From Candidatus Woesebacteria bacterium (GTDB taxonomy: Bacteria; Patescibacteriota; Microgenomatia; UBA12405), in assembly GCA_035402805.1 (NCBI GenBank), contig DAONDY010000001.1, positions 253,672 through 317,671 on the forward strand: 64,000 nucleotides of DNA. The letters are read 5' to 3'. The position numbers and the translations under genes are program-made. Below are positions 10,090-63,708 of the stretch, one piece after another; the stretch's first letter is position 1; the number at the start of each line of letters is the position of its first letter. The notes under the pieces are model-generated. The model worked only from the letters and a program-made list of their open reading frames with translations, searched no databases and was not told where the DNA came from.

Positions 10090-10127
10090 AGAAATATTAT
10101 TAATTTTTAATTACTAAATTTTACCAT

Positions 10128-11231
10128 TTAAACAACTTTTTCCCACGGATATTCTTCATATCCAAAATGACCATACTTAGCCGTATTTTTATATATTGGT
10201 CTTTTTAAATCTAAACCATTAATAATTCCTTTAACCGACAAATCGATTAATTTCCAAGCAAATTCTTCAATCTCTTTTAAATCTTTTTTAGCTGTTTCAA
10301 AAGTTTCAATTGATTTAGAAATCGGATCTCTTTGACCAATTGCATAAGCTAATTGAACTTCACATCTATCAGCTAATCCAGCCGCCACAATATTCTTAGC
10401 GATATATCTAGCCGCATAAGCCCCACTTCTATCAACTTTTGTTGGATCTTTTCCGGAAAAACAACCACCGCCAATTCTTCCCATACCACCATATGTATCA
10501 ACTATAATTTTCCTACCAGTCAATCCAGTATCCGATGCTGGCCCACCAATTTCCCATTGACCAGTACCATTAAAGATAATTTGATTAATATCCAATTTAT
10601 TTAAATTATATTTTTTCAAAACTGGTAAAATTGCCAACTCGTATAAATGTTTTTTTACTTCATCTTTATTTATTTTTGGATCAAATGGTTTAGCTAAAAC
10701 TATTTTTTCCACTTTTATTACTTTTCCATTTTTATAACTCACACCCACCTCAGCTTTTCCATCTGGTCTTAAATAATTTAATTCTTTAAATTGTAATTCG
10801 TCCATCTTTCGACATAATTCATGTGATAAAACAATTGGCAATGGCATTAATTGTGGAGTCTCATTACAAGCATATCCAAACATCATCCCCTGATCGCCAG
10901 CTCCATCATTATCAGCTCCAATGGCAATATCACGAGATTGTTCATGAACCGCCACATCAAAAAAAGCATCTTTAGTAAAACCCAATTCTGGTTTGTTATA
11001 ACCTAGATTTTCTATCACTTTTTGGGCAATTTTTTTGTAATTTAATTTTGATTGGCTTGTCACTTCTCCTGCCATAGTTACTTTATTGGCAGTTACCAAA
11101 GTCTCTACGGCTACTCTAGAATTAACATCTAAACTTAAGGCTGCGTCTAAGACAGCATCAGAAATCTGGTCACAAATTTTATCTGGATGACCAGCACAAA
11201 CAGATTCGGAAACGAAAAAGGGATATTTCAT
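10128..11231 (-). CDS. metK: S-adenosylmethionine synthetase
   Basis: SESVCAGHPDKICDQISDAVLDA, GAGDQGMMFGYA and GGGCFSGKDPTKVDRSGAYAARY motifs. Confidence 0.95.
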   Translation of the reverse strand: MKYPFFVSESVCAGHPDKICDQISDAVLDAALSLDVNSRVAVETLVTANKVTMAGEVTSQSKLNYKKIAQKVIENLGYNKPELGFTKDAFFDVAVHEQSRDIAIGADNDGAGDQGMMFGYACNETPQLMPLPIVLSHELCRKMDELQFKELNYLRPDGKAEVGVSYKNGKVIKVEKIVLAKPFDPKINKDEVKKHLYELAILPVLKKYNLNKLDINQIIFNGTGQWEIGGPASDTGLTGRKIIVDTYGGMGRIGGGCFSGKDPTKVDRSGAYAARYIAKNIVAAGLADRCEVQLAYAIGQRDPISKSIETFETAKKDLKEIEEFAWKLIDLSVKGIINGLDLKRPIYKNTAKYGHFGYEEYPWEKVV

Positions 11232-11353
11232 ATTTTTCCTTTAATTAATTAATAAAGGCTTGTCTACTTCACGATGATTGAAGTACTAGCACCGCGACCC
11301 CTTTTGGGCTCGGTTGCTGTTCCCAATTTTCATTGGGGATCTCTTGACAAAGC
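11232..11353 (-). ncRNA. candidate SAM-responsive riboswitch (S-box-like) leader of metK, with an SD-sequestering hairpin
   Basis: Minus-strand RNA GCUUUGUCAAGAG-AUCCCCAAUGAAAAUUGGGGA-ACAGCAACC-...-GCGGUGCUAGUAC-...-GACAAGC. A P1 helix (GCUU(U)GUC/GACAAGC) encloses islands UCAAGAG, AUGAAA, GCAACC and GGUGCUA in S-box order. Downstream, CCUUUAAUUAAUUAAUAAAGG pairs the SD (AAAGGA) 6 nt before the ATG. Confidence 0.4.
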
Positions 11354-11359
11354 AATTTT

Positions 11360-11388
11360 ATATTAAAGTAATTTTTAAAAATTTTCAA
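11360..11388 (-). promoter_or_regulatory. sigma70-like promoter for metK leader (-35 TTGAAA, 17-nt spacer, -10 TAATAT)
   Basis: Read on the minus strand: TTGAAA-N17-TAATAT-aaaatt-G. The predicted TSS coincides with the 5' end of the P1 helix. Confidence 0.4.
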
Positions 11389-11398
11389 CTTGATAATT

Positions 11399-12358
11399 TT
11401 ACAAACTTTTCAACTTTCCTTTCGTCTCTTGATCAAAAAATGACAACACACCTCCAAACAAAGCATTGATTATTCCTAAAATTCCCAAAAATGTCGACAT
11501 TAATAAAATACTTTCGTTTGAGCCTCCGGCCTGAGAAAAGAAAAACAAAAACAACTGTTCTCTGGCTCCAAAACCACCAATTGAAATCGGTAAAACTAAA
11601 ATCATTGAAATGATAGTCATAAAGGCAAAAATCGAAAAAATACTAATGCCAACCCCAAATTTCCAGCTAATAAACCATGCCTGCAAAATCCAAATTGTCT
11701 CGCTCATTAAAGAAATCAAAAGACATTTAATAATTTTTTTCTTATTTTCACTAGTTAATGAATCAAAAGCATCATCTAATTTGTGTAAAAAAGTAACTTT
11801 AGGCAAAAATTTTGATGCATCAAAAAAATAAATTACTAAATAAACCAATAAACAAAGAATTGTTAATACCACCAATAAATAAAAAATATAATCTGGAATA
11901 TTTATGCCTTTTTTTCTACTTACAACAGCCGAAATTAACGCCAAAAACATAAACATTGAAAATCCAATAAATCTATCTAATATTATTGATCCTAATACTT
12001 TAGTTTTTGGAATTTCTGAATATTTACGATCAATCACTATCCACTTCAACACATCGCCAGCTGCTGAAGTTGGAAAAATTAAAGAATAATATGAAGCTAA
12101 AAAACTTGCTCTAGTAAAAGTTAATATTGTTTTAATTTTTATTTTTGGAAACAAAAGTAAACTCCATCTAACCGAAATTAAAAACACTATAAAAAAACTA
12201 ATAATTATATTGCTTATCACAAACCATAAAGGTACTTCCCTTAAATTTTTAAAAAGACTTACTATATCAACCTTTCTAAAAGCAAAATAAATTAAAACCA
12301 CCGAAAATGTTATCCTGAAAAGTTTAGAAGTAAAAATTTTCTTAAAAATCTTTAACAT
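11399..12358 (-). CDS. flippase-like membrane protein (lysylphosphatidylglycerol-synthase TM-region / UPF0104 family)
   Basis: 319 aa with ~8 TM helices and sequence pattern typical of TIGR00374-like proteins that accompany glycosyltransferases. Confidence 0.45.
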   Translation of the reverse strand: MLKIFKKIFTSKLFRITFSVVLIYFAFRKVDIVSLFKNLREVPLWFVISNIIISFFIVFLISVRWSLLLFPKIKIKTILTFTRASFLASYYSLIFPTSAAGDVLKWIVIDRKYSEIPKTKVLGSIILDRFIGFSMFMFLALISAVVSRKKGINIPDYIFYLLVVLTILCLLVYLVIYFFDASKFLPKVTFLHKLDDAFDSLTSENKKKIIKCLLISLMSETIWILQAWFISWKFGVGISIFSIFAFMTIISMILVLPISIGGFGAREQLFLFFFSQAGGSNESILLMSTFLGILGIINALFGGVLSFFDQETKGKLKSL

Positions 12359-54091: not shown

Positions 54092-54352
54092 ATGTATTTC
54101 GTATATTTTTTAAAAAGTCTTAAGAATGAAAAAATATATGTTGGTTATACAGAAAAAGATCCTCAGATTAGATTAAAAGAACATAACCAAGGTTGCAACA
54201 GTTGGAGTAAAAACAATAATCCCTTTGTTTTAATTTACTTTGAAAAATATCATTGCAAAACAGACGCTATTGCAAGAGAAAGTTTTTATAAATCTGGTTT
54301 TGGAAAAAAAATTAAAAAAGTTATAATAGATACACTTACAAAGGTTGTTTAG
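54092..54352 (+). CDS. GIY-YIG nuclease-superfamily small protein (UPF0213/YhbQ-like)
   Basis: MYFVYFLKSLKNEKIYVGYTEKDPQIRLKEHNQG matches the GIY-YIG signature. Start moved to ATG 54092. The upstream part of the track ORF is read-through of the hairpin array. Confidence 0.65.
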   Translation: MYFVYFLKSLKNEKIYVGYTEKDPQIRLKEHNQGCNSWSKNNNPFVLIYFEKYHCKTDAIARESFYKSGFGKKIKKVIIDTLTKVV

Positions 54353-54416
54353 CTCAGTTGGTTAGAGCGTTTCGTTCACATCGAAGAGGTCACAGGTTCG
54401 AGTCCTGTAACAACCA
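54343..54416 (+). tRNA. tRNA-Val (anticodon CAC)
   Basis: Cloverleaf: acceptor GGTTGTT/AACAACC, D-arm GCTC-AGTTGGTTA-GAGC, anticodon arm TTTCG-TTCACAT-CGAAG, T-arm ACAGG-TTCGAGT-CCTGT. No encoded CCA. Confidence 0.85.
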
Positions 54417-60315: not shown

Positions 60316-60388
60316 AGCCGAAGGGGAGAGTCGAACTCCCGACCCCAGCTTTACGAAAGCTATGCTCTACCAACTGAGCTACTTCGGC
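60316..60388 (-). tRNA. tRNA-Thr (anticodon CGU)
   Basis: Reverse complement GCCGAAG-TA-GCTCAGTTGGTAGAGC-A-TAGCT-TTCGTAA-AGCTG-GGGTC-GGGAG-TTCGACT-CTCCC-CTTCGGC-T folds as a cloverleaf. Confidence 0.85.
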
Positions 60389-60393
60389 ATCAG

Positions 60394-60464
60394 AGCGGCT
60401 AGAGGGAATCGAACTCTCGACCTATCCTTGGGAAGGATATATTTTACCACTAAACTATAGCCGC
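60394..60464 (-). tRNA. tRNA-Gly (anticodon CCC)
   Basis: Reverse complement GCGGCTA...TATCC-TTCCCAA-GGATA...GAGAG-TTCGATT-CCCTC-TAGCCGC-T. One A-C mismatch in the T-stem. Confidence 0.8.
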
Positions 60465-63634: not shown

Positions 63635-63708
63635 CGGACCGGATGGGATTCGAACCCACGATCTTCCGCGTGACAGGCGGATGTGCTAGACCGCTGCACC
63701 ACCAGTCC
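63635..63708 (-). tRNA. tRNA-Asp (anticodon GUC)
   Basis: Reverse complement GGACTGG-TG-GTGCAGCGGTCTAGCAC-A-TCCGC-CTGTCAC-GCGGA-AGATC-GTGGG-TTCGAAT-CCCAT-CCGGTCC-G. Confidence 0.85.

Follow-up and report, generated by a model that had tools for sequence, protein, structure and literature searches.

What kind of RNA lies in front of metK in Candidatus Woesebacteria, and how may it control the gene? We addressed this question for a stretch of 64,000 nucleotides (in the following, the window; contig DAONDY010000001.1 of assembly GCA_035402805.1, positions 253,672 to 317,671 of the forward strand), in which metK is preceded by a structured leader. Coordinates refer to this 64-kb window unless a locus is named. 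A sequence-only reading of the same DNA had proposed an S-box-type aptamer for S-adenosylmethionine (SAM), with a promoter of its own and a hairpin that occludes the Shine-Dalgarno (SD) sequence. From structure, conservation and covariation, gene context, and promoter position, we conclude that the leader is a real cis-acting regulatory RNA and belongs to a well-known kind. It is a structural variant within the clan of SAM-I, SAM-IV, and SAM-I/IV and not a new class. By homology and context, it most likely serves as an OFF switch that responds to SAM and acts on the translation of metK. We assign a probability of roughly 0.75 to this reading as a whole, i.e., a SAM-clan riboswitch of a distinct sub-type that switches off translation, for which we infer the ligand, the sign of regulation, and the coupling of aptamer and hairpin.

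Structure of the leader

Downstream of the promoter, the leader folds into a four-helix junction formed by P1 to P4 (11353–11258; Table 1). The minimum free energy (MFE) of the 131-nt leader is −37.4 kcal/mol as compared to −22.9 ± 3.3 kcal/mol for shuffled sequences (z = −4.4), and none of 200 shuffles was as good. Single-sequence MFE folding gave the same junction together with the SD hairpin in 10 of the 13 members of the leader family described below. The elements named in the sequence-only reading, i.e., P1, UCAAGAG, GCAACC (11317–11312), GGUGCUA (11293–11287), and the hairpins, were all found again, on the minus strand like every other element of the leader.

P1: The helix is mostly invariant in the family. 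In one leader (L174), a U-A pair is changed to A-U and a C-G pair to U-A.

P2: The hairpin had been recognized, but its 3' strand is UUGGGA and not UUGGGG. Hence, the first C is unpaired. In 13 of 13 sequences, P2 runs on over 9–11 bp without a break other than a bulge of 1 nt at most. In SAM-I, a kink-turn with the conserved residues G19, A20, G35, and A36 divides P2 into P2a and P2b (PMC3764141); P2 of the leader has no such division. It agrees with P2 of SAM-I/IV, which is undivided and has neither an internal loop nor the pseudoknot PK-1 (PMC2864571, PMC6890682). All six modelled pairs show compensatory changes, and the loop sequence is variable. In the window, a single A separates P2 from P3.

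P3: The six lower pairs are invariant, and five upper pairs are compensatory. The lower stem GCAACC/GGUGC is, by analogy with SAM-I, the presumptive SAM-binding core. In one relative (L164, about 565–625 of its locus), ~30 nt are inserted into P3 and fold into an additional hairpin, GGAUUUAAUCC. As this insertion is tolerated, the length of P3 appears to be unconstrained. In the window, UAG stands between P3 and P4.

P4: After model-based realignment, 100% of the cells are paired, and all six pairs are compensatory.

The sequences AAGAG and GCAACC...GGUGC and the U7-A87-type nucleotides of P1 are arranged around the P1-P2-P3 junction and constitute the binding core of the SAM clan (CL00012); they line up with the consensus of both the SAM-I/IV and the SAM-I model. 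As core sequence and topology match, we place the leader in this clan, though it scores below the cut-offs for SAM-I and SAM-I/IV (see below). The positions that are invariant in the family correspond to published ligand-contacting or conserved positions of SAM-I, which include G11, C44, A45, A46, C47, U57, and G58 (PMC3764141; bioRxiv 10.64898/2026.03.23.713157).

Table 1 Elements of the metK leader and their positions in the window
Feature	Position	Strand	Remarks
−35 box TTGAAA	11383–11388	−	Promoter scan
−10 box TAATAT	11360–11365	−	Promoter scan; 17-nt spacer from the −35 box
P1 5' strand GCUU(U)GUC, GCUUUGUC	11346–11353	−	Conserved helix; pairs with 11258–11264
J1/2 AAGA	11342–11345	−	Part of the invariant AAGAG core; equivalent to SAM-I A9–A12; aligned to the SAM-I and SAM-I/IV consensus
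P2, GAUCCCCAAU-GAAA-AUUGGGAAC	11319–11341	−	Uninterrupted hairpin, 23 nt; stem CCCAAU/AUUGGG; GNRA loop, without kink-turn
P3, GCAACC-GAG-CCC-AAAA-GGGG-UCGC-GGUGC	11289–11317	−	Invariant lower stem GCAACC/GGUGC; variable upper stem CCC-AAAA-GGG(G)
P4, UACUUCA-AUCAUCG-UGAAGUA	11265–11285	−	Internal hairpin, 7 bp, between P3 and the P1 3' strand as P4 of SAM-I
P1 3' strand GACAAGC	11258–11264	−	C11262 pairs with G11348, the equivalent of SAM-I A6-U88
SD hairpin CCUUUA-UUAAUUAAU-UAAAGG	11238–11258	−	Abuts P1 without linker; C11258 common to both
SD AAAGGA	11237–11242	−	Read from the sequence; predicted ~80% paired; 5 nt upstream of ATG
metK coding sequence	10128–11231	−	367 aa; ATG 11231–11229; all three MetK Pfam domains

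Conservation and covariation among orthologous leaders

Orthologous leaders (n = 12) were obtained from twelve exact-protein look-ups and one locus of a metagenome scan; with the window, the family has 13 members. Homologues of MetK are many (65–89% identity) and, where named, are methionine adenosyltransferases of Candidatus Shapirobacteria or Woesebacteria. All 12 leaders, which are of this Shapirobacteria/Woesebacteria type, have the architecture in common, and metK follows directly downstream of the element in every family locus retrieved.

RNAalifold recovered P1 to P4 from a MAFFT alignment made without structural information, and 17 of 30 pairs were compensatory. In this alignment, 90.1% of the cells were paired compared to 78.4% for shuffles, and slid registers reached at most 55%. 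The covariation score was 0.403 versus 0.204 for shuffles, and none of 500 shuffles reached it. Model-based realignment gave 92.0% paired cells (shuffles 78–79%, slid registers at most 58%) and a score of 0.446 (shuffles 0.20–0.21). As this realignment leans towards the structure, the figures from the MAFFT alignment are the fairer ones. All 13 sequences agree in the columns of AAGAG, GCAACC, GGUGC, and the U7-A87-type nucleotides of P1. P2, the upper part of P3, and P4 drift freely through double changes.

The family covariance model (R1) scores the 13 members at 80–136 bits and three more distant leaders (L085, L081, and L083) from the Candidate Phyla Radiation (CPR) at 32–52 bits. On 80 other metK loci, including 19 matches to the classic SAM-I pattern, R1 returned nothing at E ≤ 0.01. 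It found no second copy of the element in the window, where all remaining matches had E ≥ 0.18.

Two wider scans were carried out. The scan of GTDB species representatives by protein pattern returned mostly distant MetK proteins (60% identity or less), and a single locus (L002) had a SAM core with a simple P2. The metagenome scan with universally conserved peptides gave five useful loci (L081 to L085).

Three loci from these collections are worth recording. L172 (about 500–701 of its locus; P0075, MetK 73% identical) is nested in the family and has no leader: the metK ATG abuts the stop codon of an LPG_synthase_TM gene, and R1 finds nothing. In this lineage, the element has apparently been lost. 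In L081 (1403–1504; more distant CPR, MetK 61% identical), leader and SD are followed by an upstream open reading frame (ORF) of 33 codons, MKNNLPLQTKFSLKTDPKLSYVFCIVFLNNSVL, whose stop codon overlaps the metK start (AUGA). This arrangement suggests that metK may be controlled there via translational coupling. L001 (CAZLVB010000040.1) encodes the closest MetK among the GTDB species representatives (60% identical); its metK lies directly after another ORF without a leader, and the label of this metagenome-assembled genome, 'uncultured Gammaproteobacteria', looks out of place for such a CPR-type MetK.

Promoter and SD hairpin

The promoter TTGAAA-17-TAATAT (11388–11360), which is of the sigma-70 type and had been proposed before, was found again by a scan. 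A box of TTGACA or TTGAAA, a spacer of 17–18 nt, and a TAnnnT box ending 5–6 nt upstream of P1 are present in 12 of 13 leaders. In the window, G11353 as the first base of P1 lies 7 nt past the −10 box. As the promoter distance is fixed across the leaders, the 5' end of the mRNA should be at or beside the start of P1, and transcription would thus start at or near G11353.

The SD-sequestering hairpin is conserved as well. Its correct sequence is CCUUUAUUAAUUAAUUAAAGG; the sequence-only reading had recognized the hairpin and contained a single-letter slip. Within the family, the hairpin occurs in two forms, CCUUUA/UAAAGG and CCUCUU/AGGAGG, and complementarity is kept by compensatory changes at position 4 (U-A in 6, C-G in 6) and position 6 (A-U in 5, U-A in 5). 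Both forms are interspersed on a neighbour-joining tree of MetK. Hence, complementarity has been restored repeatedly, although the tree is rough and the number of events approximate. The stability of the hairpin stays within narrow limits, from −2.7 to −6.3 kcal/mol. L164 is an exception (−11.6 kcal/mol), as its hairpin has gained a GC-rich stem without losing the loop motif.

Across the family, the hairpin loop UUAUUAAUU hardly varies. The loop region CUUUAUUAAUU (11244–11256) contains the palindrome AUUAAU and is near-invariant in L161–L174 and L082 while the helices drift. No conserved pairing partner was found for this region. An internal promoter in the loop was considered because of a TATTAAT there, and was rejected as it lacks a correctly spaced −35 box. 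Between aptamer and ATG, there is no transcription terminator.

Genomic context

Upstream of the leader, on the minus strand as well, lies a gene of the LPG_synthase_TM family (11399–12358), whose stop codon precedes the promoter. The order LPG_synthase_TM, metK, and GalE-like epimerase is otherwise conserved among the relatives. In L164 (1870–2217), L167 (1870–2211), and L168 (1841–2185), a gene of 113–115 aa (23S_rRNA_IVP / bAvd-like) is located between metK and the epimerase gene. The window lacks this gene and has a gap of only 38 nt (10090–10127) at this junction. Elsewhere, the window contains four tRNA genes at 54343–54416 (+), 60316–60388 (−), 60394–60464 (−), and 63635–63708 (−), two of which are 5 nt apart.

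Proposed mechanism

We propose that the transcript starts at or beside the first base of P1 and would form the P1–P4 four-way junction, in which AAGAG, GCAACC, and GGUGC represent the nucleotides contacting SAM in SAM-I. Directly 3' of P1, a marginally stable hairpin would pair the SD with a CCUUU or CCUCU anti-SD. Binding of SAM would then lock P1 and the core. As the two helices abut without a linker, the locked P1 may stabilize the marginal SD hairpin by stacking and/or by a tertiary contact, possibly through docking of the conserved UUAUUAAUU loop. The hairpin would become harder to open for the 30S subunit, and MetK synthesis would drop at high SAM, which amounts to translational feedback repression. 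In SAM-I/IV, the regulatory step is likewise SAM-induced stabilization of the 3' subdomain, according to the summary of Trausch et al. (2014) within PMC8525861.

Evidence against the assignment and alternative explanations

Several results weigh against this reading. At the Rfam gathering thresholds, a search of the whole window returned the four tRNAs only and no riboswitch. The best match of the leader, SAM-I/IV (RF01725), covers the full model and reaches 34.9 bits (E = 3.8e-4, 331 nt searched), below the cut-off of 41.1 bits. SAM-I (RF00162) aligns end to end to the junction without the 3' hairpin at 24.1 bits, and its cut-off is 44.4 bits. The SAM-I/IV alignment treats P4 as an insertion in J3/1 and places the SD hairpin on the hairpin that the model has 3' of P1. 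The SAM-I alignment places P4 on P4 and deletes the kink-turn/P2b block (~20 positions) and the J3/4 strand of the pseudoknot. Other Rfam families did not match the leader, and SAM-IV was not among the best matches of the clan. In a 52-kb search, none of the 12 close relatives matched SAM-I/IV at E ≤ 0.1; the best SAM-I score among relatives was that of L173 (29.4 bits), which is also sub-threshold.

Neither pseudoknot of the clan was detected. For PK-1 (L2 with J3/4), no consistent complementarity was seen by inspection, to which no statistical test was added; L2 varies in length and sequence, with a GNRA tetraloop in the window, L173, and L082, and J3/4 has 2–3 nt in 12 of 13 sequences. For PK-2 (L3 with the 3' tail), the best complementarity spans 5–8 nt, and its position, counted from the AUG, scatters between −24 and +29. 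In the 8 of 13 sequences processed, 23–300 of 300 shuffles did equally well. A candidate PK-2 in the window, the AAAAG/CUUUU match at +10, was rejected as it is not conserved and is equalled by all shuffles. Neither the length nor the sequence of L3 is conserved, and the tail, with every candidate 3' partner, is invariant, so that a consistent L3 pairing is impossible. Regulation by SAM-I/IV requires PK-2, formed by the P3 loop and the 3' tail, in the part of PMC8525861 that summarizes Trausch 2014.

The pair equivalent to A6-U88 is also unusual, being G-C in 13 of 13 family members. Among 49 other matches to the SAM-clan core pattern, which come from metK loci of many phyla, 46 have A at position 6. 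In SAM-I, both A6 and U88 count as highly conserved (PMC3764141). Two uridines point a carbonyl at the sulfonium of SAM, and U88 is one of them. Discrimination between SAM and S-adenosylhomocysteine (SAH) has been attributed to the carbonyls of U7 and U88 (bioRxiv 10.64898/2026.03.23.713157; PMC6914780). Finally, nearest-neighbour folding revealed no ligand-dependent alternative structure, as the SD hairpin forms with or without P1. Hence, the coupling between aptamer and hairpin is purely our inference.

In favor of the assignment, the two checks named by the sequence-only reading, covariance-model search and covariation in orthologous leaders, both gave a signal, with the SAM-I/IV and SAM-I matches being full-length and sub-threshold. 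Its suggestion of a SAM-I/IV-like variant without the kink-turn block of SAM-I fits the best Rfam model and the uninterrupted P2. Among distant CPR metK leaders, L083 and L085 score above the SAM-I/IV cut-off and L084 above that of SAM-I. As L083 and L085 pass, the family sits beside SAM-I/IV within the CPR.

It is possible, though we doubt it, that the leader is simply a divergent ordinary SAM-I/IV riboswitch, in which a PK-2-type pseudoknot is hidden to a comparison of 13 AU-rich sequences and SAM stabilizes the 3' subdomain. SAM-I/IV is the best Rfam match, with the whole model aligned including the hairpin 3' of P1, and P2 has the same layout of closing pair, 1-nt 5' bulge, and uninterrupted stem. 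The two distant leaders above the SAM-I/IV cut-off are also matched by R1, and L083 has an internal P4-like hairpin. Moreover, according to Zhang et al. (2019; PMC6890682), SAM-I/IV has a P4 helix, lacks PK-1, and contains a P2 that is not split. However, the score is 34.9 against the 41.1 bits required, 0 of 12 relatives are detected, L3 is unconserved opposite invariant 3' partners, and the SD sits within a hairpin and not in a tail that pairs with L3. An unlikely, more radical version of our own proposal is a pseudoknot-free SAM-clan architecture, in which the SD hairpin would replace the PK-1/PK-2 subdomain via its UUAUUAAUU loop, and/or in which G-C at 6-88 would relax or change the discrimination between SAM and SAH. 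If the pseudoknot-free part is true, the ribosome-binding-site hairpin itself would be part of the ligand-stabilized tertiary fold. In a separate reading, the G-C pair at the sulfonium-facing position could alter ligand selectivity, so that the RNA might bind SAH besides SAM, or a related metabolite, and would resemble the metK-associated SAM/SAH riboswitch more than a strict SAM sensor. The occurrence of G-C in all members, against the A at position 6 in 46 of the 49 other pattern matches, and the role credited to the U7 and U88 carbonyls speak for it. We consider it quite unlikely because the remaining ligand-contacting nucleotides are all invariant, cytosine retains the minor-groove O2 carbonyl, and the constant metK context fits SAM.

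The sequence-only reading had suggested mutually exclusive folds of the P1 3' strand and the anti-SD. Such a classical helix swap, or another anti-sequestor helix that frees the SD in the apo state, is very unlikely. C11258 is indeed able to pair either with G11353, extending P1, or with G11238 in the hairpin. When the SD was forced open at a cost of 1.5–4.6 kcal/mol, most sequences extended P1 by G-C and C-G, and nothing beyond this two-pair extension was gained. However, the overlap is this one nucleotide, both helices coexist in the MFE folds of 10 of 13 members, and forbidding P1 left the predicted SD pairing unchanged in 13 of 13 sequences (0.80 vs 0.83 in the window); hence, mutually exclusive folds are not supported. 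The sign would also be wrong, since a SAM-stabilized P1 would weaken sequestration, leading to activation by SAM instead of feedback on metK. Pairing of AAGAG in J1/2 with the anti-SD CUCUU is possible in CCUCU-type members and appears in an alternative fold of L162; it was rejected because members of the CCUUU type, to which the window belongs, lack it. The P4 3' strand, considered as SD mimic or anti-anti-SD, is purine-rich in all members but, by inspection, does not covary with the CCUUU or CCUCU type and was rejected, too. Extremely improbable is a ligand-independent leader, i.e., a relic aptamer that is retained because it stabilizes the mRNA or constitutively damps translation. The absence of both known supporting pseudoknots and the leaderless lineage L172 within the family would agree with a relic. 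Against it, compensatory changes let every helix drift, but the exact positions that contact the ligand never change, which is the signature of selection on a binding pocket.

Comparison with known SAM riboswitches

As judged from the sequence comparison, the sub-type combines a P2 of the SAM-I/IV type with an internal P4 of the SAM-I type, no detectable PK-1 or PK-2, and G-C at 6-88.

SAM-I/IV: The leader shares with this class the core sequences, an uninterrupted P2 with a 1-nt 5' bulge, the lack of kink-turn and PK-1, and a hairpin right after P1. SAM-I/IV likewise acts mostly on translation, its 3' subdomain contains the ribosome-binding region, and it occurs in metK leaders of metagenomes and CPR. 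The leader differs in its score below the cut-off, in having no detectable PK-2, in the ligand-adjacent P1 pair (G-C rather than A-U), and in the location of the SD inside a P1-adjacent hairpin with an enlarged, nearly invariant loop.

SAM-I: In both RNAs, four helices meet in a junction, and P4 follows P3 and precedes the 3' strand of P1. The AAGAG/GCAACC/GGUGC core and the equivalent of U7-A87 are also shared; metK is a classic target gene of SAM-I. Unlike SAM-I, the leader has no kink-turn/P2b, the PK-1 strand of J3/4 is either deleted or taken up by P4, G-C stands in place of A6-U88, and control would be translational rather than by a terminator.

SAM-IV (RF00634): Clan, core, and a hairpin 3' of P1 (P5 in PMC6890682) are shared. 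SAM-IV has a split P2a/P2b, PK-1, PK-2, and no internal P4 (PMC6890682), whereas the leader has an undivided P2, an internal P4, and neither pseudoknot that we could see.

SAM/SAH (RF01727): This class differs from the leader in its fold, an unrelated H-type pseudoknot, and the leader has no Rfam match to it. The SAM/SAH riboswitch is associated with metK and regulates translation by occlusion of the SD. Its only relevance here is that it sets a precedent for loose discrimination between SAM and SAH by a metK switch.

Significance for Patescibacteria

Riboswitches of Patescibacteria/CPR are barely documented, and our literature searches found no description of a riboswitch, SAM-responsive or otherwise, from the CPR. 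The results indicate that the Shapirobacteria/Woesebacteria-type lineage as a whole probably controls metK by a SAM-clan RNA that is missed at the Rfam thresholds. For annotation of CPR genomes, the family covariance model R1 can be used. The leaders also represent a natural experiment, in which the SAM core has been retained without either pseudoknot that is thought to brace it and with G-C at a position where A-U is regarded as universal. To show how such a leader still binds SAM, or that its ligand differs slightly from SAM, would sharpen the rules that apply to aptamers of this clan.

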